A stretch of 64,000 nucleotides of DNA from Amoebophrya sp. A120 (GCA_905178155.1 CAJINV010000028.1:261746-325745); one strand, 5' to 3'; counted from the first letter of the stretch, positions 5,885 through 62,380 are shown. A program made the numbers and translations. Notes: generated from the letters alone by a model not told the origin.

Positions 5885-8800
5885 CTACTTGCCCGGGACG
5901 TCCCTCCGCCACTTGGTGGTCGGCCAATCAGCCTCAAAGCTCTCGTATCCGTCCGCCTTCATCTTCTCCCTGTGGTCGGCGCGCGCTTTCTCTGCGCCCT
6001 CCCCGCGAAGATAGAAGCTGCGCGCTGGTTTTTTTTTCCCTTTGACCGGCGCGGAATATTTGCGGCATTCGCACCACCTGAAGCAAAGAACGTGCGCAGT
6101 GGGCGGCTTGGCCAGCGGCGTGAGCATCTGTAGCCGAGAGCCCCAAGGTGAGTGCCGGAGCAACGTTAAAAAAAAAGCAGTGCGCCGCCGGCTCACCCGC
6201 AGCTCCTTGGGTGTGTTCCCCTGGTCATGCGACTCGAGCGGCCGGAAAAATTTCGTGCGCTGGTCTGCTTTCTCTCCAGAGCGGCCTGGCGGTGCGACGG
6301 CCGGGGCGGTACGAGAGAGCGGCGATCCCCAAAATTCTTCCAAGATCATGTTCAAGGCGGCGGCGGGGCCGTTGCCGGTGCTCCATACCTGGCGGTAGGT
6401 CTTCGCCGCGACTTCCTGCAACTGCTTCACTCGGTCCGCCCCCTCCTCCTCCACGACGAATACCTCCGGGCGATTGACCAGGAGCCGCAGGCCGAAAGAC
6501 ACACCGAACGAGGCGTCGTCTCCGAAGTACTCGGCAAGCTTCCTCGGTATCCAGTGCAAACGCGTCTGGGCATGGAATGATGCAGGGCTCCTAAGTGCTA
6601 TGGGCACTCGTCTACAGAAACTTCAGCTGAAAAGAAAATGCAAAATCTTTCACGTGCGTTGCAGCTCAAGGCCGCTCGCAGCTTGTCACGCAACGAATAG
6701 AAAATCATGTGTAGCAACTACGCGGCCAAGTAAAACTTGCGGGGGCGCCGCCCCGTTTTTGCGTTTGACTTTGCCCGCCATGGCCCTCATCTAATAGCTG
6801 GCCAACATTCCCCGGCCCCGGCCCGGACGCGTTTGCATTTCGTAGGCGGCGACGGCAGTGGTGCGCCATTCGGAAAATACTCCAGCGCCCAGCTCCGTTC
6901 AAAATCTTCAAGCTCCCGCGCTTCGACGTCTGCGCGCTTTTGCTCGACGGTCTGCTTCTTCGAGCGCGGAACTACTGAGCGGAAGTAGGCATATCCACTG
7001 CAAACGTGTCTGGGTCTAGAAACTTGTCATGACCAATACAGAGTACTCAGCACACGGCGCCCGTCCTGATTAAAGCCAAGCATGACAAAATCTGAAGGCG
7101 CTGCCTGATGCCGCTGCGTAGTGCGCATGGCATTCGCGGGCCCTGTGCTTTGCATGACAGCAACGGGCTCGGTTTTCCTTTTGTTGGTCAGCATGCAGCA
7201 TAGAGCAATTTACACAGGAAAGAAGCAGGAAACTGCCAGCGACCCGAGGCCCGGGCACATTTGCAATGCGTAAGACTCTCAGCCAAGCAATCCGCTCCGC
7301 GGTGGTTGCTTCTTTGCTGGCCTTGAGAAGTGCTTGCGCACTGCGGTGATCAAGGTCAGTGTCGAAGCGGCAACCCCGCCGCTCCTTCACAGCAGGGCAC
7401 CAAAACTTTTCCCGCTTTCCGGTCGCCGGGTCGTCCAATTCGCACCGCGCGCCCTTCTCGGGGCCATAGTCCCGATCGTACAGGCAAACGTAGAGCCTTT
7501 CAAACTCTCGGCATCGCTTGTTGCTCGAGTGGTCTCGGAAAGCCTTCTGCACGGCAGTGGCCTCATCACGGCACTGGTGGCATAGCAGCAGCTCCTCCGC
7601 CGGCAACCAGTGGAAGCATGGGGAAAGACTCGCCGCAGCCGGCACACGGTCCGCCTCAAGCACGCCGGCCTCACCGCCACCCGCCCAATCCCGGGCCGCC
7701 TCCCTTCCCACCACGTCCGGCATGCGCTCCGTCGCGCCTTCTACGAAGCAGAGGCAACAACGCCCCACATGGTCCGCGCGCTCCCAATGGTTTGCCCATC
7801 GCTTTCCCCTCTTCATTGACGAATCTCGACGCTTGGAGGCAGAAGACGGGCGAGCCAGCGCGCTGCTGGCCCGTGCCTGAGAGGGGTCCGCCACAATTGT
7901 TGCACGCGGGCCACCAGCAACGACAACGCTTCGGCTCCGGTTGCAATTCGTGGAGTTCGCACTTGCGGCCGGTAGTCTCATGGTCTGTACATCCGGCGCC
8001 GGGACCTTCTGTAGCTCCTCCTGTTTTTGGTCTGCTGCGGCTGATGTTCTACGTCCCGACCTGGTACCCGCAACTGCAACAGATGAGCTCCCGCTCTTGG
8101 TCTTGCCCACGGCAACTTAGATATGGACTGCAAATGTGTCTCAGTCTGGAAAGATTCAAGCTTCTCATACTTGGCTGACAGGGAAGAGAAACCTGTCATG
8201 CCAACTGCACTACAGCCTCTTCTCTTCGTCTACAATCATGCAATTTGTCACGCGGGTTTTTTTTACAGAAGATTTAGCAGGCGATACCTTTGTCATGCGT
8301 GCCTCCGTCTGTTGTAAATGTGATAGACACAGATCGTCATCCACCGATCAGCATGATAAGTCCACTCCAGACCCAGACACCAATTTCCAGTTGATAGACC
8401 GCAACGCCAGCACTGGCTTTAGAAGAAGACTGCTTTTTATTCACTGCACCTAGGTCCTTCGAAAACTTGGAAGAAGAAGATCCAGCTGCAGCTCCTTCTC
8501 CAGAACCAACTGACAATTGCTGCAACTCCTTCTCCAGAAAGTCCTCCAAGTCCGACTGCAGTTGCGATTTTCTCGCCGCTTTAGAATTCAACTTAGAGGT
8601 CAAAGCCTCCATGCGGTTGTCGTCTTTCTTTTTCACCGTTCCCGGTCTCGCGTTGCTGCAGGAGCTCGTGATAATACCCCCCTGACTCATTCTACTGGGT
8701 GCTCGTTTCATCGCTGGGGTTTTGGAAGAGCTTGACTTCGAGTGTAATATCTCCGGTTGTTGCTCTACTTCTTCTTGCAGCAGAAGTTCATGCTCATTAT

Positions 8801-10305
8801 TCGCCTGCTTTTTACTACTCTTCTTCGCCGATTGCTTCCTCACCATTCCGCTCGCTCCATCCGCGGCAGAAGGGATACTAGAGCCTCTTGGTTCTGCTAC
8901 CGAACCGGTCCGCTTTTTCGCCACGGTGGAGCTAGCGTCAGACTTTGCAGTTTTTGTTCCGGCAGCAGATGCCTCTGCCTCAAGGACTCTCTTGACGGAG
9001 GATTTCGATTTCGATTTCGCTTGCTTCATGTCAGCATCCTGTTTCTGGCGTTTCTGTTCGGCGATAGACATCTGCTTCTCACTGCGCTCTTGTTCCGCCA
9101 CGGCTTTGCTCGCGGCTTTCGAGTTGCTGTAGGTCATTTTTCGTTTCATCACTGTGCTTGAAGAGGTCGCTTTTAGTTTACCAGCGGGCTGCGCGTCTTC
9201 TGTGTCGACGTCGAGCGTGTAGTAGTTTTCGTTGGCCTTGACAGCTGACGTCTTGTTCGCGGCAAAAGTACTAGCCTCGTCCTCGACTTTTGCCTTGTTG
9301 GAGGCTGTCGTCCTCCGCTTTTTTGCGACCGGGTTAGCAAGAGCATCGGAGTTTGCTTTTTCCTGCTTCGGATTGCAGCTCTTTTCGGTTCTAACAGACG
9401 CGTCCAGGATGATCTTCTTCGTGTTGGTAGATTTCGGTTTGGATTTCGCGCTGGATTTTACGTCAGATGAATCCTGCTTCTGTTCTTGCGCGACAGACAT
9501 CACCCGCCCACTGCGAGCTTGTTCAAGAACTCCAGCCTTGTTCGTATCCTGAGTAAAAACGTACCCACCCCATAGTTGTAATGCAAATCTGCATGCTGAA
9601 AATGTTTCTCATGCGGAGCCCCATGAGAAGCATTTCATAGTCGTGTTTTGCAATTTGTCATGCTCCAATCAGCATGGTATGCTAGATCTGTGATGCTCCT
9701 GAGCTAGCTCAAACAGCACTACAATACGAGTCCAAATTTGTCATGCAAAACAGCCAAAACTTGTGGATTTGTGTAGCCGATTCCCCATCTTGACTATGGT
9801 GTGGGTACGTTTTTACTCAGGATAGTTCGCTTTCGCACTGCTGGTCGTTCTCCGTTTCGTCACTTCGCTATCACCTGCAAAAATGTCTGGGTCTGGAAGA
9901 ATGAAAGTTTCAGTTTGTCATGCTTGTCTGGCATGACTCGAGAATCTGTGCTGCATAGGCACGACAAGGCCCTCTTGGTTGTCATGCCAAAACGCAGTTT
10001 GCCATGCGGAATATATAAGACATGGCAGCCAACACATTTGTCATGCGTAGCTGCGTACTGCAATGCGTTTTTCATTCACTTTTAGCATTACAAGTTTCCA
10101 GACCCAGACATTTTTGCATTTGATATTCGCCCGAGGAAGGCAAATCTTCTTTCACCGTGCTCTTGCGCTTCAAGTTCAACTTGGAAGAAGCTTCCAGCGC
10201 GGCCGGCTTCGCGCCACTAACCTCGTACTTGTCCTTGGCGATTCCCTTGCTGGAGGTGCCTGACTCCTTCCCAGTGGCCTGGTAGTATTTGAAGAATTTG
10301 GACAT
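5885..10305 (-). CDS. Lys/Ser/Ala-rich low-complexity protein with a Cys-containing C-terminal region (paralog 1, MSKFFKYYQ...), ~1001 aa, 5 element introns
   Basis: Removing the elements at 9869, 9545, 8122, 6992 and 6548 (+5 nt each) gives 3006 nt in frame. The 8122 junction is the least certain; the gene could stop there. Confidence 0.65.
6548..6844. mobile_element. TIR intronic element, family A, decayed
   Basis: TATCCAGTGCAAACGCGTC...GACGCGTTTGCATTTCGTA; flanks CTCGG/GGCGG; frame restored. Confidence 0.75.
6992..7272. mobile_element. TIR intronic element, family A, decayed
   Basis: TATCCACTGCAAACGTGTCTGGG...GGCACATTTGCAATGCGTA; flanks AGGCA/AGACT; frame restored. Confidence 0.75.
8122..8396. 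mobile_element. TIR intronic element, family A, TSD lost
   Basis: TATGGACTGCAAATGTGTCTCAGTCTGGA...TCCAGACCCAGACACCAATTTCCAGTTGATA. Confidence 0.75.
9545..9824. mobile_element. TIR intronic element, family B
   Basis: TATCCTGAGTAAAAACGTACCCAC...GTGGGTACGTTTTTACTCAGGATA; TSD GTTCG. Confidence 0.95.
9869..10125. mobile_element. TIR intronic element, family A
   Basis: TATCACCTGCAAAAATGTCTGGGTCTGGAA...TTCCAGACCCAGACATTTTTGCATTTGATA; TSD TTCGC. Confidence 0.95.
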
Positions 10306-10481
10306 GGAACATATTTTTTTAGTAGAACAAGTAAAAATATAACCCTGATGTCTGTCGTGTGGTAAAAGCTACAACTACATAACGCCGCGGGCGGAAGTTC
10401 AGCTTTCGCTTCAGAAAGAAAAGCAAAAGAATCAATCTGGTATAATTCCCATGAGCTGCTCGTGCTCGTAACAAAATTGTT

Positions 10482-13400
10482 TTATACTTTGGCTTCCTTT
10501 CCTTTCTTGCCCTTCGTAACCGTTGGTGTTGGTTTTTCATTTTTCATTTGATTCTCCTCCAAATCCAGCTCCAGCAGGGTTTTTTTCGCCGCTTTTTTCC
10601 CGATCGCGTCTTCAGAGGAGGTGGTCTTGGTGTCGTTTCTCTTCTTCCCCAGGGCCGCGGAGGTACAACTAGAGCTCTTAGTTCTACTAATACCGCCGCC
10701 AGTACTCTTTCTAGAAGCGGCAGCGGTTTGTTTCACTGCCACCTCTGTTTTCGACGATTGCTTTGTCGCTTTTCCGCCCGCAATACCTCCTGCAAGAGGC
10801 GTGCTAGAGCCTCTTGCGCCAGACTTTGCTTCCCGTTCCGGTTTGGCCTCTTCGGCAGCAAGAAACGCCTCGAGGACTTTTTCCTTGTTGGTAGTAGATT
10901 TCGATTTTTTGGATCGCGATTGCATCAACATGTCAGCGCCCTTTTTTAGTTCCATCTGGTCTCCCCCGATAGACCTCTGCTCAAGGTGATCGTGCTATCC
11001 TGAGAAAAAACGTACCCACACCAGAGTCAGGATGGGGAATCTGCTAGACAAATCAGCCAGCTTTGGTTGTTTGGCATGACAAGTTTGTCCGCGTAGTGTA
11101 GTGCTGTTTGAGCTAGTTTAGCAGCATTACAGATCTAGTATCTCGTGCTGATTGGAGCATGACAACTATGGTGTGGGTACGTTTTTACTCAGGATACGTG
11201 CTCCAGCTTGCTCATCTTCGAGTTGTTGGCGGTCATGCTTCGTGGTCGTTTTATCACGTTGCCCGAGGATATCCTGAGTAAAAACGTACCCACACCAGAG
11301 TCAGGATGAGGATTTTGCAACACAAACCTAGGAGTTTTGTGAGTCACGCATGACAAGCTGCACTACGCAGTGTAGTGCAGGTTAGCAAGTGCAGCCGCAT
11401 CACAGATTCGTCTGCTCATCCTGTTCACAGCATCACAAATTCCAAAACACGATGGGAAATGGCTCTCATGGGGATGCGCATTACAAGTCTTCCTATCTTT
11501 GCAAATCTGCATTACAACTCTGGGGTGGGGACGTTTTTACTCAGGATAGAGGAGACCGGTGATTCTTCATTCCCCGTGGTCGTGGTCGTGACCATATTAA
11601 GAGGAAAAATCCCCCCTCCCCACATCGCAAAGGTATGCTTCCGAAAATTTGTGTTGCTGATTTGAGACCACAAATCGCCTCTGTCTTGCAAGGAGGCAAC
11701 TCCACAAGCTCCGCAGCATTGCGCAGGCGGTTTGTGATGCTGACGGGCCTCCAGTACGGACGTTCCTCATGCTAGACGCCTAGGCCAAAACCTCTCTACT
11801 TAGGCTTAGTATGGGCCTGCATTTCTCTCCAGCAAGACAGATCTGATTTGTGTACGCAAATCCTGCATCAGAAACTTCGTTTCGATATGGGGAGGGGAGA
11901 TTTTTCTTTTTGATAGACCATCACGGTGCCCGAGGTGGTCATTCTCCTTGGTCGCTTTTGTTCACCAACGAGCACGGTGGCTTGTTCAAACGGGTGCTTT
12001 TCGTTGGCCTCGAAAGTGGAAACTGACCTCTTCGAATTCTTCGTTCCGCTGGCCGCGGCACTGGTGGACTATCAAATGTAAAAATGTCTGGGTCTGGAAG
12101 AGTCCATGTTTGTCATGCGTGTCTGGCACGACTCGCAAATCTGTCATGCACGTTACCCAAGAGCGCCACTTTTCCGTCATGCAGAAACGCAGTTTGTCAT
12201 GCAGAATACAATAGGCAACACCTAGAAGCTCAGAAACTTCTCATGCTGAGCCAGCACTTGTGGCTTCCTCATGATATGCCACCCAGCATCACAAGTTTCC
12301 AGACCCAGACATTTTTACATTTGGTATTCTCCGTGGTCGTTTTATCACGTTGCCTGAGGAGCCCGGGTTTTGTTCACCTCCACCGAGCACGGTGGCTTGT
12401 TCAAGCGGGTGCTTTTCGTTGGCCTCGAAAGTGGAAACTGACTTCTTCGAATTCTTCATTCCGCTGGCCGCGGCACTGGTGGACTATCAAATGGAAAAAT
12501 GTCTGGGTCTGGAAGATGTGTCCATGTTTGTCATGCGTGTCTGGCACGACTCGCAAATCTGTCATGCACGTTCTTACCCAAGAGCGCCACTTTTCCGTCA
12601 TGCAGAAACGCAGTTTGTCATGCAGGATACAATAGGCAACACCTAGAAGCTCAGAAGCTTCTCATGCTGAGCCAGCACTTGTGGCATCCTCATGATATGC
12701 CACGACCCAGCATCACAAGTTTCCAGACCCAGACATTTTTACATTTGGTATTCTCCGTGGCCGTTTTATCACGTTGCCCGAGGAGCCCGAGTTTTGTTCA
12801 CCTCCAACAACTACGGTGGCTTCAAGCGGGTGCTTTTCGTTGGCCTCGAAAGTGGAAACTGACCTCTTCGAATTCTTCTTTCCGCTGGCCGCGGCGCTGG
12901 TGGACGAAGACTGTATCACCGGCTCTATTCTAGCAACAGACGCCTCCGCCTCGCGGCCCTTTTTGCTGGTGGATTTCGATTTTGATTTCGCTCGCCTCAA
13001 GTCAGTATCCTGCTGCTGTTCTTCATCCGCGAAGATGGGGAAGAGCTGCTCATTGCCGTTCTGTTCCAGCACCACGGCCGTGCTCGCTTTCGAGCTGTAT
13101 CAACTGGAAAATGTCTGGGTCTGGAAGAATCCAACTTGTTATGCTGATTTTGGATTCTAAAAAAATCTGTATTGCATGAGCAGCAAAGAGAGTCCAAGTT
13201 TTGCTACACGGAAAGAGCATTTGTCATGCGGCATAGGCATCAGGAAGCCCTCACAAAATCTGTGATGCTAGGGCATGCATCACAGACATCAGGAGTCATG
13301 CAAAATGTGCATGACAAACCTGGCAATCTTCCAGACCCAGACATTTTTACTTTTGATAAGCTGTTGTAGTTGTTCATTTTCCGTTTCATCGCTTTGCCGG

Positions 13401-13834: not shown

Positions 13835-14556
13835 TTACGTGAAGATCGTGCTGCTCGTAACGAATTTGCACTTACCTTCTTTCCCTTCTCTACTTTGCCG
13901 CTCGGATTTGAGGGTTTTTGATTCTCCAAACCCTCCTGGCGCTGTGTTTTTTTTCTGAATTGCAAAAATGTCTGGGTCTGGAAGATTCTCAGATTTGTCA
14001 TGCATGTTCTGCATGGCCCAGGATGTCTGTGATGCGCGACCGCGCATCACAGGTTTTGACCTGGCTTCCTGATGCCTACTCCGCATGACAAACGCCCTCC
14101 CCGCGTAGCACAAACTAGACTCCTCTTGCTGGTCATCCAATACAGATTTTTGTTTTTCTAGAGTCCAAAGTTAGCATCACAAGTTCCAATCTCGCAGACC
14201 CAGACATTTTTACAGTTGATATTTTTCTGTTCGCTTTTATCTTCCTCCTGTGTCACTTTTAATATTGCGGAACTTTTTCTGCCTTGTTTCGAGGACTTGG
14301 CTGCTGCACCCGTTCCGCTGGCCGCGGCACTGGTGCACGAAGACTGTATCACTGGCTTGGAAGTTGTGTTTTTGTTTCCATTGTTGTCGCTCACTCCAGT
14401 CGTGTTTCTGCGCTTGGGCTCGGGAGAAACTTCGGTGTCGGCAAGCTCCGCGGCAAATAGAGCCTCCTGCCCGTGTTCCGCTTTTGCCTTACTGGAGCTG
14501 GCGGACTCCTTGCTGGTGGCGGCGGTGGACTAGTAGTATTTTAATTCAGACGTCAT
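13835..14556 (-). pseudogene. Third Lys/Ser-rich paralog (MTSELKYY*), with an in-frame TAG at codon 9; 3' end approximate
   Basis: TAC TAC TAG where paralogs 1 and 2 read YYQ (CAG); shares the VIQSS.TSAAASG block with paralog 2. Confidence 0.5.
13954..14221. mobile_element. TIR intronic element, family A
   Basis: TCTGAATTGCAAAAATGTCTGGG...CCCAGACATTTTTACAGTTGATA; TSD TTTTT; empty paralogous site at ~15880. Confidence 0.9.
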
Positions 14557-19134: not shown

Positions 19135-20521
19135 TTATTTTCCTGCTCTAGAGTGAAGAAAGCCAAAGTGCGAAAATCGGAAGATTTGCAGTTTGCATAT
19201 ATAGTTCTCACACAGTCCGAATGCGATTCCGAAAAGAGCGTGTTTATGGCTACTTACATATTTCTCAAACCCGTTTGTCTCCTGTGGGGGACGCAGTCGC
19301 GCCGGAAGCTGCTGTCCCTGTTGCTTGTTTTTCGCGTCCGGTCGGTCCTTCCTTTTGTCGTTATCCTTGCGAACTTCGTATTTGGCTCCGCGAAGATGTT
19401 GGCCCGATTTGCTCGCCTTCCACTTGTTTCCGCTACTGGCCTTGTTACCTGTAGCCCACCCACGACGCCCGGCTCGTAAGTGATGAATCCGCTGGTTGTC
19501 GTACTCGAACCTGCATTGTTGGTACAGCTTGTCCCGAAGCTTTCTGGAGCGCTTTGCAGAAGAAAGCTTCTGCTTCTTCTTCTTGCTCTCGACTTGCTCC
19601 TCGTCTTCCCACGGCCAGATTTCGCGGAAGATTGCGGCTACGGCGGCTTCCGCGACATCATCGGTCACTGTCTCGTGGTCCCGAAACTTCTCCAGAGCCC
19701 CTGATACCGCGAGCAAAAGTTTCTCCGCCTCTAGCGAGCCCGCGGATCTCTTCGCATTGCTGGAACAACACTTCGTTCTCGTCGGCCCGGACTCGCGCAG
19801 ATCTTTGAGGCACCACGCCTGCACAACCGCGGGTCGGAAGAAGGGCGTACTCTTGCCCTGTTGAGGCGACAGCGCGTCGCAAATGGCGTCGTATTACAAT
19901 GAAAAATGCCCCCTCCCCATATCAAAACGGAAATCTGTGATGCAGAGTTGCGGTCACAAATCAGCTTTGTGACGCTAGAAGGGAACAGGTGCGGATTGTA
20001 GTGCTGGCTGGCGCAGGAACGCCTTGCGTCTTCAGCATGACAGGAAGCAACTGGAAAGGGGAAATAGCATAACAAATTGGCTCCAAACGAGGGAGCAACT
20101 GCGCCACTTGGCCTTCTAGCAATACACAACGATTTGTGTACTCAAATACAGAAACACAAATTTCGTTTTTGATATGGGGACGGGGGATTTTTCCTTTTGA
20201 TACGTCGATCAACGTGCTCAGATCGTCCATAACTTGCTGCTTCTGGTTCTTCTCCTGTCGCCTTTGCATGCGATGAAAATCATTTTGAAACGAGTCCCAC
20301 TGCGATCCTCCATTTGCTGTTCTCCCCTGCTCATCACGTGGACCGGCTGGTTGTGCCTGCTCTTCATGCTCGTCGATCACATCCCGCATGTCCGCGTCTT
20401 GCGAACCCAACGAACAAGAATAGCTACGTGAGCTAGAAGTGCTACGCCGCTCTCTACTTTCCTCGCGGCGTCGTGGCGGTACTACCGGGCTCTCCTTTCT
20501 ATCCATTGCGCGTCGGGGCAT
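19135..20521 (-). CDS. Hypothetical basic protein with one element intron
   Basis: Removing 19892-20202 +5 nt joins ...DDLSTLID to AICDALSPQQG...VQAWCLK in frame. Confidence 0.7.
19892..20202. mobile_element. TIR intronic element, family C
   Basis: Family C TIRs; TSD CGTCG. Confidence 0.95.
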
Positions 20522-30403: not shown

Positions 30404-30647
30404 TATTCACTGCAACTATGTCTGGGTCTGGAAGAGCGCAGTTCTGTAATGCTTGTCTCGCATGAGTCTTGAAAATTTAATACGTGAGCATCTTGTCTGT
30501 CATGCAACCACGCAGTTTGTCATGCGGAGAACGAAACACAAAGGAGCTCAGATACTTCTCAAGCATGGCAGTGTACTGCAGTCGCGCGCCCACCATTCAC
30601 ACACTAGCATCACAACTTTCCAGATCAAAACATATTTGCAATGCATG
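30404..30647. mobile_element. TIR intronic element, family A
   Basis: Diverged TIRs; TSD GTGCA. Confidence 0.85.
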
Positions 30648-36200: not shown

Positions 36201-37414
36201 ACCGTTCCGAACGACCCCGAGTTTGCCTGTTGTTGTATTCATTGGAGTACGAAATATAGACATTTGCGCGACAACTTCTACTTCAACGAGAGCGATGCAT
36301 ATCAAACAGCGCAGCAAAGAGCAAGCAACCGGCGCTCACTCCTCCCAAACGCTGCAAAAACACCCAGCAGAAATCTAGCCCTTCGGGCGTTTCCATAATT
36401 CTATTGAACATATCAAAAATCAAATAGAAGCTTAAGAAGGTACCGCAGAGAGTGGCTGAAAATCCACACACAGCAGCTTCCGTGGCGGTAAATAAACCGG
36501 CCCCGTGATGTGCGGTAAATTCGCCTCAATTCCGCACAAAACGTGCTCGCTGGTCGCCGAATTGCCCTTCAGAGTGGGGATAAGTGGCGCTTGCCGTTCG
36601 AATATCCCAGGGGAAAAGCGCTACAGTGACATCACACTACACTGAAATAAAATGCATGAGTTCCTTCGGTGGACAAGTCAGATCTTTTTCGAGCTATCTG
36701 AAGAAATCGTATAAGTATAAAACTTAATCGTATAAATCCTCATTGCAGGCAAGTAAAACACCAATCCTGTAGCTTTGCGTCAGAAGAGTTTTCGTATTAG
36801 GCAAGACAGAATTCTATGGAATCTAAGCGAGCTCGTCACTGTAGCACTTTTTTTCTGTTCGATATCGAAGCAGTCGGTGTCGTGTAGCAGGCTGTGGCGC
36901 CGATTCCTCGGCAGAGCAGCGTACTGGAACGGCAAACTGGTGAACGTATCGACCGATGAGTGCGCACGGAGCCTCGTATTCGCCGTGGTGGAAGTAGTGG
37001 TGCCGGACCCTGTGGCCGAAGTATACCCAGCGTCATCCTCGTTGGGGGACTCGTACGGCTTTTGTCGCTTCTTCGCGTTGGCGTTTGCGCGAGCAGCCAT
37101 GTCGTGCGACAGGAAGTGGGGTGTAGGTGTTTCGGGCCAGAAAAATAAAGATAATTACAGCACAGTTTATAGCCCCCTTTTTCCTGGGTTGGGAGAGCCT
37201 GGGAGAGGAAAATCAGCAACGCCAACACGTCACAAAAAAAAAACTCGCTGGATTATCTAATCCCCCGCGTATGGTGTTGATTATTATACTTTAATAGGGA
37301 GAGCCATAGAACCAAAAAAAATTTCGCGCGCGCGCTGCGCGCGCGCATTCACTCACCCCATACGCAGCCAATGGCGTTGCATCGATTCGAAGGCAAACGA
37401 GCACCGCGCGCCCG

Positions 37415-50110: not shown

Positions 50111-50278
50111 AGTTTTTAGTCGATAGAGACATGATGTAATTTTAAACCTTTTCTTATTCTTGCGTGTCCGATTTATTTCTGTCTTGTGCAGCATTTCTCT
50201 TTTACACGAATTTCCAATTTCAAAATCAAGCAGGTAGAGTAAGTTCTTCCACGACAGTGATGACAGGAATACTGAAAC

Positions 50279-51395
50279 TTAAAACAACTCTACTATGCTA
50301 TACCTGCTGCTGCTGGCCGCTATGTTCTTGGGGTTCTTGCTGCACATCCTCTACTTTCTTCCCCGCTCCGTGATCTTCGTCGACTTTCGCACGTTTGCAT
50401 TTCGGTATCAAATGCAAATATGTCGGGGTCTGGAAGATTGCCAGGCTCGTCATGCATGTTTTGTAGGATCCATGATGCCTACGCTACGAATATGCATGCT
50501 CTAGCATCACAGATTTTTGGCGGACCTGCTACAGCTAATGCCTACTACGCATGAGAAATGCCCTCTCCGCGTAACACAAACTGGAATGCTGTTGCTGGTC
50601 ATGCAATACAAATTTTGTTGAAGTCCAAAGACAGCATTACAAGTTGCAACCCTCCAGCACCACACATATTTGCAATCCATATTCGGCACCGGCAGGCTAC
50701 TGCAACAGGGGTCGTCCTCCTTCATCTTCTTGTGCTCGTCTTGGTCGGTGGAATTCGCTTGACACGAAATCTGATTTTTTTGCAAAAAAAGATGAAGTCC
50801 ACTTCTCCCCGACCTCACTTGCCGCTCGCGCTTCGTGCAGGAGGATGGGCTACAAACTTACTATACCCTCTTTAAAACAGCATGCTTAAGCAAAAGTTTT
50901 TCTGTGTAGGCGCAAAGAAGATAACATGCAGAAACAAAAGTGAAAAGGAGAAGCAACAGTAAAAAATACCTGCACATAATCTTCCGCCGGCTTTGCGGCA
51001 CAATTCTGGTTGTCCGCTGCGTCCACTTTGGGGACTGCTTCTTCCACCGCGGGTTGGCCAGTTTGGGGGCTGGTCCGAAATCCCAAGCCAGTCATGAAGG
51101 TCTGAACAATCCGCTCCATTGTTTCGGTCGTGGTCGTGGAATACTAGAGGCCTCCAGAGTAATGACGATCCAGGATGTAAGCACGTTGTGATTTCGATTT
51201 GTTTTTGTCGTCAAGGATATTTTTATATTCGCGATTTTTCAAAAATATTGTCGCCAGTTGCGATCGCAACGGTGTCGTCGGGGATACAATAAGAAATAAA
51301 CCTTCAGTCGTCGATGTCGCCGGGTACTTCTTGTAGTCGCTTTTTGTTATTGCTAGACAGCTTGTCTTTGTAGTTTTATTTTTCTTCTCTACCAA
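50279..51395 (-). CDS. Hypothetical multi-exon protein; 5' structure uncertain
   Basis: Element junction in frame (..SLPVPKCKRAKVDEDHG..) through to a TAA at 50279. Confidence 0.4.
50406..50681. mobile_element. TIR intronic element, family A
   Basis: Family A TIRs; TSD TTCGG. Confidence 0.92.
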
Positions 51396-52398: not shown

Positions 52399-55300
52399 TC
52401 ATTCCGCCTCGGCAGGAGCGCCATGCAGTTCGCGATATCGGTTGGAGTACTGCTGCCGGAGCAGCCCCCGCCACGTTTGCATGGTGGCCGCCCGCTTTTC
52501 CGCGTTTGCGTTCCGCATGACCGCCCGCTTTTCCGTGAGCAACTGCCGGTCTGACACCAGCTTGCACAATTCCAGGATGGTCCGGAACACGATGATGCCC
52601 GGCGATTTCTCAGCGTCGTACATGGAGCTGGTCTGCAGCCACTGGAGTTTTTTGACCCGGGTGGAGAAGTCCAGGGCACCCGCGGACCCCGTGGATCCGA
52701 GGTTCCCGTCGTCATTGAAGACCAGGTCCGCCAGGTACCTCTATGGATTGCAAAAGTGTCTGGGTCTGGAAAGTTGTAATGCTGGGTGGCGTATCATGAG
52801 GATTGCACAAGTGCTGGCTCAGCATGACAAGTTTCTGAGCTTATAGGTGTTGCTTATTCTGCATGACAAACTGCAGCTCTGCATGACCGAAAAATGGAGC
52901 TCTTGGGTAACGCGCGTGACAGATTTAAGAGTCATGCCAGACTAGCATGACAAATCTCGCAATCTCCCCGACCCAGACATTTTTGCAATTGATAACCTCC
53001 GGCTCGGCACGAACATGGCCAGCGACAGGGAGTTATCCTGTGCAAAAGTATCGCACTCGTACTAATTGCCTTTATGCATTACAAATCTCCATCCCAAGGT
53101 AAAACAGCATGACAAAATCCATTTGTCATGCTGAGCTAATTTGTATTGCAATTTATACTACTACGATGCTTTTGCAGTTCATAGGAGTACAGCTCGTGAA
53201 AGGCGTAGGTTTCGAACTCGTGCGGCACGTACACGATGGCTGTAAAGCGCCGCTTGATTTCTGCGAAACTCATGCCCTTGCCCGTCACCAGGTGTGCCTG
53301 TTTGCCGCACGAAGGTGTGCTGCGCAGCAGGAGCACGATCTGGAGCCCCAACCGGAGGGCATTGTTCCCCCGCGCCCAAATGCCGACGTCCTCCAGGTCA
53401 GCGGAAGCGGAAGATTTCTTGAGGTTGTTTGGTATGTCCGCAGCAATGGAAACGGCATACTGCTCTCCGTTGGCGTCCCGTGTCAGTACGGTGACGCGGT
53501 CACGAGGGCCGCTGGTTGTGCTACTTTCCGGCGTGCTATTCATTTTACTGGAAGCCTCGTCGCGGTCACCAGGCTCTCCCGGAGCGTTCTCCCCTGGAGG
53601 GAGTCGTAGTCGTTCTTGTGAGGATATAATTTCACCATCGGGTCGTGCTGGAGCCGACGATTGTTCACTAGTCTCCTGCCCACGCAGTGCTTCCTCCGCT
53701 GGTCGGAAAAGAAGATCGCCCTCGGCATTCCGTACTGCGATGCTGGATCGGCTTGGCGATGTACTAGTTGACGCAGACGCTGCGTTTTTGATACTATTTC
53801 CGCCTTCATCCTCTTCCATCTCTGCAAACCTTGTGTCGTCCAAGTGTAGCATCAGTGGCTGCAGTATCCAAGAAAAAAACTGTGTAAGTGTAAATTTGTG
53901 TTGCAGAAAATGCCAAACTGTTACACTTGTCGTGCTGGACATGCATCAGAGGCAATTTTCGTGCGTGTTTTCACGTACTAGCCACGCATGACAAGTTTTC
54001 TGTGTTATGCAGAGCAAACTTGTGATGCTATTCCTCAAAGAAACTTACACTTACACAGTTTTTTGCCTGGATATGCAGCACCGGGACAAGGGCCGGAGAT
54101 GAGGTAGCCGCGTCTTTCAGTTGCTCGGTCTCCTGCAAAATCCGCGACAAAATCAGGTTCGAAGTGGAGACGATGGCCGTACCCGCGGCTCCGCTGTGCA
54201 CCAAGGTTCGGCCTAAGCTCCAAAAGCGTCGCCATATCCCGAGTAAAAACGTGTCCATCCGATAGTCAAGATGGGAAATCTGCTAGACAAATCAACAAGC
54301 CCTGGTTGTTGCGCATGACAAATTTGGGCGCGCAGTGTAGTCGTGTTTACCTAGTGCAGCGACATCACAGATCTTGCACATCATGCTGATTCGGGCATCA
54401 CAAATCTCAAAACACAACTAGAGAGTGCTTGTCATGGGTCTCCGCACGAGAAGCGCTTTGAGGATGAATGCAGATTTGCATTACAACTCATCTGCAATCG
54501 AGGTGACGTTTTTACTCTGGATACGCCAGGCCGCAGATTCGCCGGCTGCGGCAGACGCGTCCGTGGCGGAGTTGAGAAAAACCGCCTTCGTGCACCGGCC
54601 TTCCACGAAGCACGGGGATACAGTGGCTTCTCTTTCTGGTATTATAGTAGCTGACTCAGATGCAGCTCCTGGGTATACGTCGTTTGGGGCGAGAAAGTTT
54701 GGCGAAATTCCAAACCAATTCGACTGGATTAGCAAGACTGTGTTAGTTCTACCTCCACTGGTGCCGTGCTGCTGGCTCTGCTTGTTTTTAACCGCCGTCT
54801 GTTGCTGGAAATGTTGCAGCAGGTATTTGTTCCAGACCTTGTTCAACTCCTGTTGTAATAACGCACACAAAAAGAACGGCGTGCTGCAGGAGGTAACCAC
54901 GAGCAGCTCAATAAAGGTCGTGCTGGTGCTGTTGGCGTCCTTAATCATAGAAGTATCCCTTGCGCGAGACATGACTTCGTCTTCCCACCAGTTTTCGATG
55001 ATTCTGCTTACGTGTGTTTCCACCACGTCCAACTGTGACAATCCGTTATGGAAGTGTCAGGATTGAAATCGACGAAGTTGAAATAACTTGTAATGCATAA
55101 TATCCATACAAATTGGACCCGCATTTTCTAGTCGGTGCATGACAAATTTTGTCCATGCCGGAAGCCAGTTTGTCATGCTGTTCAGGGCAAAGGGGCTCCG
55201 CTCTGTGATGCTAATCAGCAGCCCAAGTCCCGACCCTTACCAGCACTACAATCTGCCTCCCTTGCGTCCTCTGCAATAGAGGCAATCTTTGCGTTGCATT

Positions 55301-58300
55301 TTCTGCATGACAACCTATTTGAATTTTGACGATTTCAATCCTGACACTCCCATAACCGTGGTTTCCGCCGTAGTGCGGATCGTTTACGCTTTCGTCCTAT
55401 TAAGAGGAAAAATACCCCCTCCCCATATCGAAAAGGTATGTTTCCGGAAATTTGTGTTGCTGATTTGAGACCTCAAATCACGTCTGTCTTGCAAGAAGGC
55501 AACTCCACAAGCTCCGTAGCATTGTGCAGGCGGTTTGTGATGCTGATGGGCCTACAGTGCGGACGTTTCTCATGCTAGACGCCTAGGCCAGAACCTCTCT
55601 ACTTAGGCTTAGTACGGGGCTGCATTCCTCTCCAGCAAGACAGATCTTATTTGTGTACGCAAATCCTGCATCAGAAACTTCGTTTTGATATGGGGAGGGG
55701 GGATTTTTCCTTTTGATACGTCCACCTCGACAAACAAGGCCCCCAAGTCGTCCAGTTCGTTGCCGCAAAACCGGGGGTTGGGGTTCACGCAGCGACAGAC
55801 CTCCGGCGCGTTATGACAGTGCACAACTACTCCCCCTCCCTCTCATTTGTCATGCATACTCGCCGACTGCACCACATCAAAAACCTTTGCACCGTTGCCG
55901 CAAGCAGCTTCGGACGCAGACGATCTAGTCATGCAAAATCCTAACTCCAGTCCCTGCCTTGCCCTTGTGGCACTGTTTGCACGACAAATTCTGGAGGCCC
56001 AGACAGTACTAGACTAGGCACACAAATTTCCCCTGCATAGGCTCCACTATTGCTGTTCATGCAATGCAAATGAGGGGGAGGGGAGTTGTGAATTGTCATA
56101 GGCATGGCGGCACTGGTAAAACCCACCCCAGAACTGCTCCTCGTCGCGGCCCTCGACAAAGACCTGCTCTTCCACTAATGCCCGTCGCACCGCCAAATGT
56201 GCCTCCTGGGCGAAGGGCGCGTGCGTGCCGAAGCTGGCAAGCAGGGTCCTTCGATTCTTCGCAGTATTGATCGACCGGTGGCGACCACTGCTTTCTTCAC
56301 CGTAATTCGCCGTTCCACGACCACGGACCTCAGAATTCTTATTATCCACAGCATATCCTTGTGCCGCGGAAGTAGATGGTCCAGCAGAAGTGCGAAATAA
56401 GCTAGAAGTTTCTCCCCTGGCTAGCGCCGCATTGTACTCCGTAGCGGTCATGGGCCAAACGATGCCCGGGACTAGCGTGAGGCGGAAGAAAGAACCAGTG
56501 CGCGACGCTGGGACCATTTCGGAAATCGAGGAAGCTGCAGCAGTGCTTAAAGACAATAAGTAATCTGGCTCTTTATCTTCGGCACTTCTCGAGCCACCTG
56601 CACCTTCCGGGAGTGGCCCAGCACTTCTGCATAATCTCTTCGTTTCACGCGGCGGCAAAGCGTAGTTGGTACTACTATCCGCGACACGCAGACTACTCCC
56701 TTTTTCCCCGTGGACTAGCGCGCCACGGCTCACTGAGGTAGCGTTTTTCCGCAGCATCGCCGCTCCCCTCTCCTCAACGTCTGCTGTGGTCCCCGTCAAA
56801 TCTTCACCCGCTGCATTCGCGGACAACATCCCAGCATCTTCGCCCTCTTGCCGCTTTTCCTCAGGGGGGACGGGCTGCAGTACTTGGTACGATTTGTCGA
56901 AAAACAGCGCGCCGGCCCGCGTAGCTGCGCGGACTACGTGAGTGCTTTTTTCTGCTATAGCACTGGTCGCCGCACGACTACCGTCGCAGGTGATTGAGGC
57001 AGAAACGGTGCCGTCTCCAACATCTACTCCGGTAGACGTTTCACTGGTTGTACTGGTGGCATCACCAGCTGCGGTTCCGTCGCCGGCACCCCCACCGCTG
57101 CTCAGCCACACTAGGTCGAAGTGTGCCTGCATATGAACTGCAAAAGTATCGTACTCGTACAAATGCATGACAAATTGTCTCAGCATGAGAAACAAAATTT
57201 GTAATGCGGATTTACGTTGAGAAAAAAATTTGTAATGCATGATTGCAATACGAGTACGATACTTTTGCACAGGATACTGCAAGTACCGCTGCAAAACCGT
57301 GAGGTCCGCCGAGTCCGCAGGGTGGTCGCGGTCTCGGTGCATCGCCCAGAGGCTGTAGAACGTGCCCTATTGTAAGGAAAAATCCTCCCTCCCCATATCG
57401 AAAAGGCAAGCCGCAGAAAATTTGCAATGCTGATTTGTGACCGCAAATCGCTTCTGTCTTGCAAGAAGGCAAGTCCGCAGGCTCCGCCGCATTACGCCGG
57501 CGGCTTGTGATGCTGTTGGTCCTACAGCGTAGACTTTTGCCATGCTGGGGGCCTACGTCAAAACCTCGCTGCCCCGGGTTGGCGTATGCCTGCGGTTCTC
57601 TACTGCAAGACAAATCTGATTTGTGTACGCAAATCCAGCATCACAAACTTCCTTTTCGGTATGGGGAGGGGGGATTTTTACTCACGATATGCCCTGCAGC
57701 GTGTTCTCATGGAACAGCTGCTTCGGCACGAACCCCTTCTCCCGCCACCACTCAAAAAGGTATTTACCGTCCATTTGAAGCTGCTGCAGGTTCGGACTTT
57801 GATGCGGGGCTCCCGTGTAGTCGGATATCAACTGTACAAATGTCTGGGTCTGGCAGAGTGCCAGACTTGTCATGCAGGTTTTCCATGACCCATAAGGTCT
57901 GGTATGTAGGACATAGCATGACAGATTCTGTGAGAATTCTATCATGCCTATCCTGCATGAGAAACTGCCTCTCGATCAGGTCAAAAGTTGACAGCTTTTG
58001 GTAATCATGCAACACAGATTTCTACATGATTCAGATTTAGCATGGGAAGTTCCTTTGTTCCAGACCCAGACATTTTTGCATTTGATATCGGATTCCGCTT
58101 CGCGAACATCAAACACCGCGGCACCGTAGAGGCGCTCCACGCGCAGCCTGTGTTCGTGTTGCAGCAAGTGCGCAAAACTGGAGTGAATCAGGTACGCATT
58201 GGGAAAGTGGTCGTCCGCGTGCAGGCGGAACAGCACGTACCCGTATCCTGTGCAAAAGTATCGTTGTACTCGTATTGCAGACATGCATTTACCAATCTTT

Positions 58301-61300
58301 TTTTTGAGGTCAATCTCCATTACAAATTTTATTTCTCATGCTGAGGAAATTTGTAATGCATTTATACGAGTACGATACTTTTTCAATTCATAACCCGTAG
58401 GGCGTCGCGATGCGCAGAATCTCCCCGAGAGAGCAGCCCCGGATCATGTTCTTGAGCAAGGAGGAATACTGCGAGCCCACATCCGTGTACACCGTGGGGA
58501 GCCAGGAACCAAACCCGATATCCGGAGGCAGAAAATAGGCTATGATTTCCATGGCGATCAGCAGAGTTCTCGTGCGCATCTCCGTGTGCAGCTTGTGCAG
58601 AATCTTTGACAGATACTCACAATCGCGGTTGTCGAGATCAATCTTCAACAGCGTGATGGGTGCGGCACTATGGAGCTGCGCCGGCGTAGTTCCTTTGATA
58701 TTCACAGAAAACGCGTCGTGGTTCTTCTGCGTCGTGGCCGCGGTGGTCGTCCTCAACGCGGTCCTGCGGAAGAGCGGGTGCTCGTTCAGAAAGCTGTCCA
58801 CCGTCTCCGGACTCACGTAGTCCGTCACGAGATGAAGGAGCTTACGTTCTTGCGACGAAGATGACGTCTTTGCGGTCTTCGCATCTCGTGCCGGTCCTGC
58901 TTGCTGGTGTACAAGAACATCTGTGGTTCCGCTAGATGAAGAAGTTGTAGCTTCTTTAGTACCTCCTGTTGCTTCAGATGACACAAAGGTCCGGCTTTTG
59001 AAGATCTGATCGCGCAACACCGACACGCGATCGGGGTCGCCTTCGAACAAAACGCCCCCGGCGCCAGCGAATTCCACCATGGTGTGTGCTTATCGTACGA
59101 AAAAAGTGTTTCACTGTAAGGATTTTGCAGGTTTTGCATCACAAGTTTGTTCTACATGACAGAGAAAATTTGCCATGCAAGGTTCCTGAGGGAAAACACA
59201 GCTAAAAATCCCCTGTCTTGCATGTGTAGCAAGACAAACACTTGTGACTGTGAGATGCAATTTCTGCATTACAAGTTTCCAGTGAAACAGTTTTTTCTGG
59301 CGATAGTGCTGGATCCACGTCCCAGTCGGATCGGTCGTCCTCTTCCATCACTCCATATCATGAGTAAAACATCTCCACACCAGAGTCAAGATGCGGATTT
59401 TGCAACACAAACCTAGGAGTTTTAGGAGTCACGCATGACATAAACAGACTGTGCTACTACGCATGACAAGTTTCAGTCCGTAAGGTAGTGCAAGTTAGCA
59501 AGGAAAGCCGCATCACAAATCGACCTTCTCATCCTGTTTACAACATTACAAGTTCCCAAACACGATTGAAAATGCCTGTCATGGGGTTGCGCATCACAAA
59601 TGTTCCTGTCATGGCAAATCTGCATGACAACTCTGGGGTGGGGACGTTGTTACTTAGGATACTCCAGCCCCCAGATTTATCACGAACCGGTCCGCCGCGC
59701 GGGTCGCACCAGCGTCCTCCGCGGCCCTGACAATGTCGAACAAGTTTTGCTGCTTCTGTAGAAGTTGTAATCCGCCTCGCTGCAAGGTTGATGCTGCGCC
59801 CGCGCCCTGTTTCCTCGTCGTGTGCGGTTCTTGCGCTGGTGCCTCGTTTTCAACAGTAGACGGAGTAGTTGTTGACCAGTCAATCAGCTCTCGATACACG
59901 TCGGAGGGAGGAGCGGCAGGAGGAGCACCCCGAGCTACAGGTGGCTCCTGCTCAGGACCGCTTATCATTCCTGTCGCATTTTGATTTTCTTCTTCCACCT
60001 CCGCGCCTGCTGTGCCATTCTTCGGCAGACCGAGAAAGTCCTCGACGATCGTGGCCGCGTCGGCCTCGGTGAGGAACTGAAAGTGCTTTCTGCTGGGCAA
60101 CACGGCGTATCGTACGGCTTCCAGAATGTTCCACAGCAGCTCCTTGCGGTGCGGAAACCGCTCGCTTTCGAACCGGTCGTGCTCTAGCACCGAGGGGAGC
60201 AGGAACCCCGCGCAGCTCGGCGGGCTGACGGCGTGCGAGGCCCAGAACTCCTCCCACGGGTTGGGCAACCCCGACTGGCGCTCGTACTCATCCAGCGCCT
60301 CGTTTTCGCCTTCCTGCTCCGCGGCTTCTAGCGGGTCCTCGCTTCTCCGCTCCACCTATGAATTGCAAAAGTAGTATCGTACTCGTATCAATGCATTACA
60401 AATTTCCTCAGCATGAGGGATAAAATTCGTATATGCTGATTTACCTTAAGAGAAAGCTTTGTCGTGATGCATGATTGCAATACGAGTAAGTACGATACTT
60501 CTGCACAGGATACCACCTCCCGTAGCCGGTGGGGGACCTGCACCAGTGCCTTCTGGACGTGCCGGTTCTGCTCCCCGTGCTCGAAGAGGCGCGCAAACGC
60601 CCGGATGGAGGCCGTTTCCGGCGCGCGGGGGCCATGGTGGCGAAAGAAGGCCGCCAGCTCGTCATACAGTGCGGTGCACACGTGGTGCAGGTGCGTCAGC
60701 ACCTGCTTCTTCTCGTTGCGGACCGCGTGCTCCTCCGTGAGCACCGTGGCTCCGTCCAACCGGTCCAGGATCGCTTCGTTGCGGAGAATGATTTCTATGT
60801 TGGTCTCGCCAACCTCGTTCAAAACTTCGTCAAAGGACAGGGAGCTGAAATAGGTCATGTTGCTCTTTCGCTTCTCGTATGAAATGCAAAAGTATCGCAG
60901 TCGTATAAATGCATTACAAATTTCTTCAGCATGAAAAATGAAACTTGTAATGCTGAGTTTCCTTGAGAACAAGATTTGTAATGCATGACTACAATACGAG
61001 TACGATACTTTTGCACAGGATATCTCGTCCATCAGGTCGTGGTGTTCGTCGACCAGGTCGTCCAAGTGCGTTAGCTGCACGTTCCAGTGCATTTTCAGAC
61101 ACACGTACTGCCCGAGCCAGCAGGTAAGCTCGAACACCAGCTGTGCGATCTTCTCCAGAAATTGCCTCGCCCGCGGGTACACCTGGATCTGATGATGAAG
61201 ACTGGAAAACTCGAAAAACTCGTTCGAACAAACCATATCGTCCCCCTCCGGATCCAGTATCTCGCTGGCGTTCTCTTCCCCGCGCAAGTCAATTTGGGCG

Positions 61301-62380
61301 GCAATGCGCCTCCGCTCCTCCTCATCGCCGTTCAGCGCGCGGCTATCAAATGCAAATATGTCTCGGTCTCTCTGGAACTTTGCTAGACTCGCCATGCAGG
61401 TTTTCCATGACCCATGAGGTCTGTAATGGAGGACCTAGCATGACAGATTCCGGGAGATCATCACTATCATGATGCCTATCCTGCACGAGAAACTGCCTCT
61501 CAACTTGATCAAAAGTGGACAGCATTTGGCAATCATGCAACACAGATTTTTGCATGATTCAGGTTTGACATGACAAGTTCCAACCTTCCGGACCCAGACA
61601 TTTTTGCAGTGCATAGCGGTCCCACAATTGCCAGGACCGCTTGGCGCAGTGCAGGAGGATGTCGGAGCCCAGCGCCAAAGGCACGCGGACGGTTCTCAAA
61701 AGCTGCCTGTCCCTTGCGAGCCCGTCCTCCTGCTCGTCCTCTCCTGCCTCCGTCGTGCCCTCCAGAAAAGTGGCCGGATCCTGTTCCATCAACATCTCCC
61801 CGGCCTCGTCGACCATGAACCGCGTGTGCGTGAGCGTCACTTTCTTGGTCTCAAGCTCCTGCAGCGTGTCCAACATGTTGCGGACCAACCAGCTCTCACG
61901 GTAGACGTTGTCGCTCGCCAAAATGGTGTTTCCCGAAGCGTGCGGCTCCTTGGCATTCGGAAGGCAAATTTGCAGTTCCGCGGGCTGCAGAGCCTCAAAC
62001 AGCCACGGCACGGGGCAGCTGTGGACATCGGAGTCGACCAGCCGGACGGGATCGTAATCCTTTGTGTGCTGCAGCAGCACTTGCTCATTGCTTCGCTGGT
62101 ACCGAAAATTGAAATTTCGGCTGGCTTTGGACGGCACCGCAGTGGATTTTTTCCGCCGGTGCTGGGGGTCTTGCCTTTCTCCAAAGATCGTCGAGTGCGC
62201 GGGCGCCTCCGGAAAAACCTCGCTCCTCTCCCGACGGTCCCGGAGCCATGCGATGTAGTCTGGAATAACATGGGCAAAGATGTCCCAGCGGTTCTGGTAG
62301 CAGCTGGCGCGGTCAGGGAGAAAAAGCAGATGGCATGTGACGATGAGAACACCTCCAGGGACGAGACGAGCACGGGACAT
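52399..62380 (-). CDS. Large protein (~2036 aa) with a hydrophobic N-terminus and a central FkbM/Methyltransf_21-like SAM methyltransferase domain; 16 element introns
   Basis: 9982 nt minus 3871 nt = 6111 nt; all 16 junctions in frame. Motifs FVINLGAG...GGVLFEGDP, LLKIDLDNRDCEYL, IAMEI and GCSLGEILRIATPYGYVL. Confidence 0.82.
52742..52994. mobile_element. TIR intronic element, family A
   Basis: Family A TIRs; TSD ACCTC. Confidence 0.95.
53034..53183. mobile_element. TIR intronic element, family D (short)
   Basis: TATCCTGTGCAAAAGTATCG...CGATGCTTTTGCAGTTCATA; TSD GGAGT. Confidence 0.93.
53865..54073. mobile_element. TIR intronic element, family G
   Basis: TATCCAAGAAAAAAACTGTGTAAGTGTAA...TTACACTTACACAGTTTTTTGCCTGGATA; TSD TGCAG. 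Confidence 0.95.
54235..54523. mobile_element. TIR intronic element, family B
   Basis: Family B TIRs; TSD CGCCA. Confidence 0.93.
55047..55354. mobile_element. TIR intronic element, family H
   Basis: TATGGAAGTGTCAGGATTGAAATCG...CGATTTCAATCCTGACACTCCCATA; TSD TCCGT/ACCGT. Confidence 0.93.
55398..55718. mobile_element. TIR intronic element, family C
   Basis: TSD CGTCC; closely similar to 11595-11915. Confidence 0.95.
55812..56100. mobile_element. TIR intronic element, family J
   Basis: TATGACAGTGCACAACTACTCCCCCTCCC...GGGGGAGGGGAGTTGTGAATTGTCATA; flanks CGCGT/GGCAT; frame restored. Confidence 0.88.
57132..57276. mobile_element. TIR intronic element, family D
   Basis: Family D TIRs; TSD CTGCA. 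Confidence 0.95.
57368..57689. mobile_element. TIR intronic element, family C
   Basis: Family C TIRs; TSD TGCCC. Confidence 0.93.
57826..58087. mobile_element. TIR intronic element, family A
   Basis: Family A TIRs; TSD TCGGA. Confidence 0.95.
58244..58392. mobile_element. TIR intronic element, family D, inverted relative to 57132
   Basis: Family D TIRs; TSD ACCCG. Confidence 0.95.
59091..59305. mobile_element. TIR intronic element, family E
   Basis: TATCGTACGAAAAAAGTGTTTCACTG...CAGTGAAACAGTTTTTTCTGGCGATA; TSD GTGCT. Confidence 0.93.
59356..59661. mobile_element. TIR intronic element, family B
   Basis: Family B TIRs; TSD CTCCA. Confidence 0.93.
60357..60512. mobile_element. TIR intronic element, family D
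   Basis: Family D TIRs; TSD CCACC. Confidence 0.93.
60878..61022. mobile_element. TIR intronic element, family D
   Basis: Family D TIRs; TSD TCTCG. Confidence 0.95.
61344..61615. mobile_element. TIR intronic element, family A
   Basis: Family A TIRs; TSD GCGGC/GCGGT. Confidence 0.92.

Follow-up and report, generated by a model that had tools for sequence, protein, structure and literature searches.

This report concerns a window of 64,000 nucleotides from Amoebophrya sp. A120 (GCA_905178155.1 CAJINV010000028.1:261746-325745, one strand, numbered from its first letter), which carries 54 inverted-repeat elements of 145-344 bp each, spread over 6548..61615 and, with one exception, interrupting minus-strand genes. 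The elements, the genes that we could identify and the ordinary introns are listed below. TSD stands for target-site duplication, k is the number of bases of the left TSD copy kept at the joint after removal, (-) marks the minus strand and (.) an unassigned strand; lengths given as skipped are those missing from the transcript contigs.

6548..6844 (-): element; 2 TSD mismatches; frame restored
6992..7272 (-): element; 2 TSD mismatches
8122..8396 (-): element without recognisable TSD; stop if k is 3 or more
9545..9824 (-): element; perfect TSD
9869..10125 (-): element; perfect TSD
10996..11196 (-): element; perfect TSD
11270..11548 (-): element; perfect TSD
11595..11915 (-): element; perfect TSD
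12070..12326 (-): element; flanks differ at 3/5; likely recombinant of two insertions
12485..12750 (-): element; tandem duplicate of the 12070 element
13098..13358 (-): element; perfect TSD
13954..14221 (-): element; perfect TSD; one end TCT
19892..20202 (-): element; perfect TSD
22194..25133 (-): protein kinase gene GSA120T00024451001, 6 elements; equal to P0001 at 473/473; Pkinase
22431..22690 (-): element in kinase gene; perfect TSD
22760..23014 (-): element in kinase gene; perfect TSD; one end TTT
23066..23316 (-): element in kinase gene; perfect TSD
23392..23643 (-): element in kinase gene; perfect TSD
23897..24107 (-): element in kinase gene; 1 TSD mismatch; k 0-1 required by annotated residue M253
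24183..24444 (-): element in kinase gene; perfect TSD
30404..30647 (.): element with decayed end, outside restored frames
31009..31290 (-): element; 2 TSD mismatches
31351..31628 (-): element; perfect TSD
31673..31885 (-): element; perfect TSD
32316..32659 (-): longest element (344 bp); perfect TSD
32730..32984 (-): element; 2 TSD mismatches
36603..36864 (-): element; perfect TSD
39909..45894 (-): gene GSA120T00024453001 (1495 aa), 4 elements; matches P0002; 5' end approximate
40052..40366 (-): element; 1 TSD mismatch (silent)
40401..40668 (-): element; 3 TSD mismatches; k 1-3 required by annotated residues
44696..44947 (-): element; perfect TSD
45012..45290 (-): element; perfect TSD
47233..47517 (-): element; 1 TSD mismatch; k at least 1, from a transcript piece that stops at 47228
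47590..47851 (-): element; 1 TSD mismatch; transcript length agrees with its removal
47982..48254 (-): GT-AG intron, deduced from the length of the transcript
48339..48623 (-): element; 290 nt skipped; k 0-4
48687..48953 (-): element; 272 nt skipped
49053..49290 (-): element; 243 nt skipped; k 0-1
49475..49689 (-): element; 220 nt skipped; k exactly 1; joint without shared base
49735..50059 (-): element; 330 nt skipped; k 0-2
50107..50303 (-): GT-AG intron, absent from the contigs that show element joints
50406..50681 (-): element; 281 nt skipped
50771..50969 (-): GT-AG intron, absent from the contigs that show element joints
52402..62404 (-): 2044-codon stop-free frame, 16 elements removed; from frame restoration
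52742..52994 (-): element; 258 nt skipped
53034..53183 (-): element; 155 nt skipped
53865..54073 (-): element; 214 nt skipped
54235..54523 (-): element; 294 nt skipped
55047..55354 (-): element; 313 nt skipped; k 1-5
55398..55718 (-): element; 326 nt skipped
55812..56100 (-): element; 294 nt skipped; k 1-3
57132..57276 (-): element, 145 bp; perfect TSD
57368..57689 (-): element; perfect TSD
57826..58087 (-): element; perfect TSD
58244..58392 (-): element; perfect TSD
59091..59305 (-): element; transcript pieces agree with its removal
59356..59661 (-): element; transcript pieces agree with its removal
60357..60512 (-): element; perfect TSD
60878..61022 (-): element, 145 bp; perfect TSD
61344..61615 (-): element; 1 TSD mismatch

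Elements and host genes

We collected the elements with a scan for paired inverted ends that did not consult flanks or TSDs, with four shuffled windows as control; it returned 57 candidates in the window and 0, 1, 1 and 0 in the shuffled ones. Six candidates were dropped (four are units of the tandem array near 26 kb, one lies in the repeat near 37.6 kb and one, at 46445, is a chance pair), three elements found by eye were added and one start was corrected, giving 54. A preliminary description of this DNA had counted 52; its size range and its extent hold.

Column counts over both arms of the 54 elements give the end consensus TAT-N7-AAA and its reverse complement, and both arms carry the terminal inverted repeat (TIR) described for strain A120 by Farhat et al. 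in 2021 (TAT, seven variable bases and at least three A). Excerpts of that paper (PMC7789003; the other papers are likewise cited from excerpts) describe A120 inverted repeats that start with TAT, followed by seven variable bases and an A-run, and form hairpins, with direct repeats of 3-5 nt (5 bp in the legend of Fig. S19), RNA-seq-supported removal, no GT-AG ends and a mean length of about 240 nt; they count 29,850 repeated introns in A120 and leave the mechanism of removal open. Since all testable defining features of A120 introner elements are present, the elements almost certainly belong to that class, whose 5-bp repeats and hairpin were already published in 2021 and which is therefore not new. 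Two genes spliced in silico match annotated A120 proteins, P0001 (GSA120T00024451001) and P0002 (GSA120T00024453001), from the same 325,745-bp A120 contig, so that the genome and the genes are those of Farhat et al., with no difference in kind; the earlier guess of an Amoebophrya introner was right down to the strain.

TSD mismatches number 0 in 35 elements, 1 in nine, 2 in six, 3 in three and 5 in one; the 5-bp duplication had been recognised before, with slightly different counts (34 perfect, eight with one mismatch). A perfect direct repeat of 5 bp occurs at 35/54 elements and one of 6-9 bp at 0/54, and flank identity is limited to five positions (43-49/54 inside, 5-18 outside). Where the TSDs are mismatched, elements are more distant from their closest copy than where the TSDs are perfect (p=0.0003), which fits older insertions, and the direction of the mismatches shows no pattern. 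The flanks of 12070 and 12485, which lie in a tandem duplication of a 51-codon exon plus element (11915-12930), match two different element-free paralogous sites within the same gene, and this comparison suggests that the two arose by recombination between two insertions, that is, by exon shuffling.

The window elements form sequence clusters of 19, 7, 5, 4 and 2, plus 17 singletons, and copies of the same family occur in both orientations (48 same-orientation and 37 opposite-orientation pairs). They have the hallmarks of miniature inverted-repeat transposable elements (MITEs), namely TIRs, a TSD of fixed length and high copy number, and at 145-344 bp are too short to encode a transposase. Besides the window, matches were found in one other assembly only (144 loci, L001-L144, in a pattern scan of metagenome contigs covering 16 of 64 parts). 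It holds 307 distinct elements with the same 5-bp duplication, their flanks being identical in 265-275/286 at the five inner positions and in 53-65 outside; the finder used there demanded some TSD match, so that only the duplication length is informative. Viral contigs gave no element match, and no Rfam family was found in the window. Seven longer TIR-bounded stretches (457-1255 bp) were seen in L005, L019, L039, L040, L062, L064 and L077; some have inner element ends and are possibly nested or mis-paired, and their longest stop-free stretch is 149 aa.

An internal 8-nt motif, TGT[CGA]ATGC or its reverse complement, has 140 matches in the elements (13,981 bp) and 2 in the rest of the window (50,019 bp). 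It is present in 301/310 elements, head-to-head near both ends (forward copies peak in the second decile, reverse copies in the ninth), and could be a subterminal transposase site or a splicing-factor site. The sections and legends of Farhat 2021 that we cite do not contain it.

Excising each element plus 5 nt opens frames without stops on the minus strand, of 2044 aa (16 elements), 1022 aa (5), 542 aa (6) and 476 aa (6). Intron lengths are distributed 17/16/21 modulo 3, and retention of a single element disrupts the frame in 38/40 tests. The rule of length plus 5 gives the longest downstream frame for 44/52 elements, the eight misses all lying near a gene end or a GT-AG intron, and element 30404 lies outside every restored frame. 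Element 30404-30647, whose strand is unassigned, is the only one outside a restored frame and the only one without T at its mRNA-sense 5' end, an end decay consistent with release from splicing constraint.

A protein search with a kinase exon returned one A120 protein, P0001, identical to the spliced gene over 473/473 residues, and the gene matches Pkinase in Pfam (E 2.5e-12). With a second exon we retrieved the 1495-aa A120 protein P0002, which matches across four further elements and continues on both sides of one further intron. A Pfam scan of 17 exons recognised only the kinase and PC4. Two protein searches with window exons gave no match; after the second of them, the gene carrying the TSD-poor elements 6548, 6992 and 8122 has no outside support.

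Removal and position of the cut

Transcript contigs were taken from four runs, all of one sample and only presumed to be RNA, and matched to 48255-56200, the prediction of length plus 5 having been fixed before the reads were matched. All the elements matched (13/13) were skipped by exactly this length, as the preliminary description had proposed, and with two GT-AG introns they make up the 15 joints of the region; three runs show all 13 element joints and the fourth shows 10. Because the same contigs lack the two GT-AG introns, they derive from spliced mRNA, and record coordinates across the joints leave no inserted letters. In one contig, 879 nt between 47228 and 50970 correspond to the loss of eight elements at +5 and of three GT-AG introns. 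Four further elements fit removal at length plus 5 by contig-piece arithmetic, and another contig fits removal of 59091 and 59356. One raw-read run, in which only 6 partial reads matched the window, gave no joint information.

A DNA-like run covers intergenic DNA evenly at a depth of ~43, with very high summed depth over the elements. One of its contigs (49254-50433, depth 44, 0 differences, unbranched) contains the whole of elements 49475 and 49735. Its joint list (15 listed and 669 more) is repeat-derived and can neither show nor exclude rare element-free DNA, and its head-to-tail element rows have letters between the copies. In the RNA-like runs, loose ends join element ends to the flanks of other loci. 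Transcript contigs that skip the elements and a DNA-like contig that keeps two of them whole bear out the RNA-level route, one of two offered earlier; we consider it highly probable that the elements are removed from RNA.

Since a perfect TSD lets the joint slide over six positions, only mismatched TSDs narrow k. Seven read-based junctions give k of at least 1 (47233), 0-4 (48339), 0-1 (49053), exactly 1 (49475), 0-2 (49735), 1-5 (55047) and 1-3 (55812), and two annotation-based ones give 0-1 (23897) and 1-3 (40401). The sole value that fits all nine is k=1; further, k values from 3 upwards are incompatible with the frame at 8122, and the mRNA at 49475 is a chimera of both TSD copies with no shared base at the joint. 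These junctions are suggestive of, and do not settle, an intron that reads N/TAT...ATA-NNNN in mRNA sense, cut 1 nt before TAT and 4 nt after ATA. If cuts were independent and uniform, a common position would arise with P=0.055 for the nine junctions and 0.19 for the seven read-based ones, and the Bayes factor for a single fixed k over a uniform k is 124. A mostly fixed offset thus seems likely to us.

Codon scores over 45 mismatched junctions in the metagenome loci peak weakly at the k=1 register (54.0, against 53.5, 50.5 and lower), and a stop-codon register test on the same junctions, which is nearly blind, found 1 stop, at one extreme register. Published motif lists fit k=1 (the nine top A120 motifs in Table S4 of Farhat 2021 all have T second, PMC7789003; GT plus AT is common in the A120 families of Gozashti et al., PMC12130899), but they were not counted as evidence, because where a joint is set within a perfect repeat is an arbitrary choice of the aligner. 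The offset of 1 and 4 nt was not found in the excerpted text of Farhat 2021, Gozashti 2022/2025 and two reviews, whose figures or dataset rows may contain it.

With k=1 the intron starts NTA in 53/54 elements; GT starts occur in 14/54, AG ends in 2/54 and both in 0/54. Any GT/GC..AG register within -3..+8 is present in only 5/54, in line with the claim that no conserved GT/GC-AG ends exist. The elements lack the U2 intron dinucleotides (GT/GC 5', AG 3'). The euglenid signature N3CDG...CHGN5-6/R is absent too, the A120 ends being N-TAT...ATA-N4. Predicted folding is strong (z < -2 in 49/54 elements, median -6.4), with a predicted mean pairing of 0.69-0.75 for the first three TIR bases and less for the TSD bases; element 49475, where k is fixed exactly, folds weakly (z -0.4).

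Candidate machinery

Our reading of the whole, to which we give a probability of roughly 0.55, is that A120 introners are cut from pre-mRNA at a fixed stem offset by a relaxed spliceosome. A transposase encoded elsewhere would place the elements in exons, in either orientation, duplicating 5 bp; in the transcript the two ends are predicted to pair and to leave the TSD bases mostly unpaired. Cuts 1 nt before TAT at the 5' side and 4 nt after ATA at the 3' side, as the nine junctions suggest, would then take out one TSD's worth of bases, whatever their sequence, and give the original exon back. The TA of the element would occupy intron +2/+3, like the GTA donors of ordinary introns (those in the window start GTA in 3/3), with G+1 and the 3' AG dispensable. 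During the second step of ordinary splicing, G+1 of the intron makes contact with its final G. For the spliceosome itself the odds appear about even: we turn to it because TA lands at +2/+3, because G+1 and the final G would have been freed together and because most spliceosome parts are present (Farhat 2021 found most of them and no U1 snRNA, PMC7789003), and we slightly favour a relaxed spliceosome over a non-spliceosomal route like that of Euglena.

Several points weigh against this reading. The absence of any G enrichment at +1 (79/256) together with arbitrary 3' ends fits poorly with a normal second splicing step; the frequency of G there is like that at other TSD positions, and selection for a GT donor was rejected. 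TA at +2/+3 is also the transposon end, so that the match to GTA may be coincidence. Read in transcript orientation (310 oriented elements, strand calls agreeing in 49/51 loci), the two arms show almost no asymmetry; only arm positions 3 (13 vs 2 of 310, p=0.007) and 4 (6 vs 19 of 310, p=0.013) differ, with p values not corrected for the 15 positions or for kinship within families. Neither the window nor the 144 metagenome loci yielded a transposase gene. As to the offset, P=0.055 is not significant, the exact k comes from one junction (49475) alone, two of the nine informative junctions rest on published annotation and not on reads, and a narrow spread such as k of 1-2 at other elements is not excluded. 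Finally, the transcript contigs, all from one sample whose RNA label was guessed, show the presence of joints and not their proportion.

The same offset could be cut by a structure-measuring endonuclease with a ligase, or by another ribonucleoprotein, as proposed for Euglena, and we hold this as a tentative alternative; equally tentative is the view that a non-spliceosomal ruler, reading 1 nt before and 4 nt after the stem and needing no repeat, G or AG, arose in A120 independently of the Euglena system. We know of no candidate enzyme for such removal. Both intron end positions are free, and the nearly symmetric arms function in either orientation, as such a cutter would allow; the Euglena code N3CDG...CHGN5-6/R is itself a stem with fixed spacers, for which its authors favour distinct factors (PMC12501133), and euglenid introns leave as circles (PMC11282704). 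However, the offset sets the T and A of the element exactly at +2/+3 of a GTA-like donor, the first two bases vary in 3/620 on the 5' arm and 10/620 on the 3' arm (a non-significant trend), and in Fritillaria the spliceosome removes introns with TIRs and TSDs (PMC11282704). Were the ruler real, tens of thousands of transposon insertions in A120 would be removed by reading the terminal stem alone, any TAT...ATA hairpin would serve universally as an intron that leaves no scar, and recombination of elements between insertion sites (12070, 12485) would shuffle exons.

Removal from RNA with a cut whose place within the TSD varies between elements, as drawn by Farhat et al., is rather unlikely. The shared k=1 would then be due to chance, for which P=0.055 leaves room; the legend of their Fig. 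3 calls the sites variable (PMC7789003), and annotation-based calls vary among A120 families (PMC12130899, dataset rows 548-569). Against this stand the Bayes factor of 124 and the codon scores with their weak peak at k=1, and the published variability would be expected from aligner ambiguity in perfect repeats.

Reverse-transcriptase slippage, which would make the joints 'falsitrons' and leave the elements in the real RNA, is very improbable: a hairpin with short direct repeats is its classic substrate (PMC8240250) and the transcript data are probably all cDNA-based, but the joints at 49475, 49053 and 23897 share 0-1 bases beside an available 3-nt repeat, which argues against slippage and against microhomology-based DNA excision alike, eight elements are missing together from one contig, and the 38/40 disrupted frames include the kinase domain. 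Excision from DNA at a stage of the parasite's life cycle, with transcripts made from element-free templates, has as little to recommend it: the elements resemble cut-and-paste transposons and the DNA and RNA runs come from different samples, but microhomology repair would take the longest repeat, and the RNA-like runs join element ends to the flanks of other loci, as unspliced precursors or carried-over DNA would. Programmed DNA excision, the second route offered earlier, finds no support in the unbranched DNA-like contig that spans two elements at single-copy depth, though contigs could miss rare or stage-specific events. To our knowledge, no separate somatic nucleus exists in this group.

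Known systems, neighbouring features and meaning

The candidate single offset differs from the account of Farhat et al., whose legends to Figs. 3 and S23 have the cut position variable or unknown. In strain A25 the inverted repeats, which start TTA, extend into the direct repeat, and TT begins each of the nine top motifs (PMC7789003); such ends would likewise put T and A at +2/+3. Gozashti et al. 2025 report 58 A120 introner families (PMC12130899), which among 22/58 rows are mostly TIR DNA elements of unknown superfamily, many with non-canonical ends; there automated calls of splice-site origin differ by family (co-opting both, the 5' or the 3' site), whereas here a single offset with both cuts inside the TSDs fits every informative junction. 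The nonconventional introns of Euglena (PMC12501133; PMC6221363) share a MITE-like origin, a terminal stem, absence of GT-AG and set cut distances, but they belong to an unrelated lineage and have a CDG/CHG motif, spacers of 3 and 5-6 and a next exon that starts with a purine; the A120 elements have TAT/ATA, spacers of 1 and 4 and no purine rule that we could see. Introns of Fritillaria borealis (PMC11282704) are also derived from transposons with TIRs and TSDs and lack GT-AG, but they prefer the ends AG-AC and AG-AT and are reported to depend on the spliceosome. Introners of Aureococcus/Micromonas and Symbiodinium (PMC9860276) are non-autonomous DNA transposons whose splicing removes one TSD; unlike the A120 elements, they carry or co-opt GY/AG and so need particular targets.

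Elsewhere in the window, 309-968 holds a gene without elements and with two PC4 domains, and 5888-16250 a cluster of paralogous minus-strand genes, rich in Lys, Ser and Ala and sharing N-terminal and C-terminal motifs, of which three exons scanned gave no Pfam match. A tandem array at 25983-27100 has a unit of ~120 bp with an internal inverted repeat; further arrays lie at 37400-37900 and 63150-64000, and 37911-38221, adjoining the former, has a 92% copy in the metagenome locus L008.

At least 60% of Amoebophrya introns lack GT-AG, and the question of how they are removed dates from 2021. What we add to the published class is modest: a candidate offset, the 8-nt motif and the recombination of 12070 and 12485. 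If true genome-wide, a fixed offset would replace 'variable splice sites' by one rule and put right the annotated ends of as many as about 30,000 repeated introns. It would also predict where exactly the excised RNA begins and ends, of use in sequencing lariats or circles, specify a minimal substrate for reporters and explain how elements can insert harmlessly anywhere, in either orientation. The offset is a testable clue to the machinery that removes these introns.

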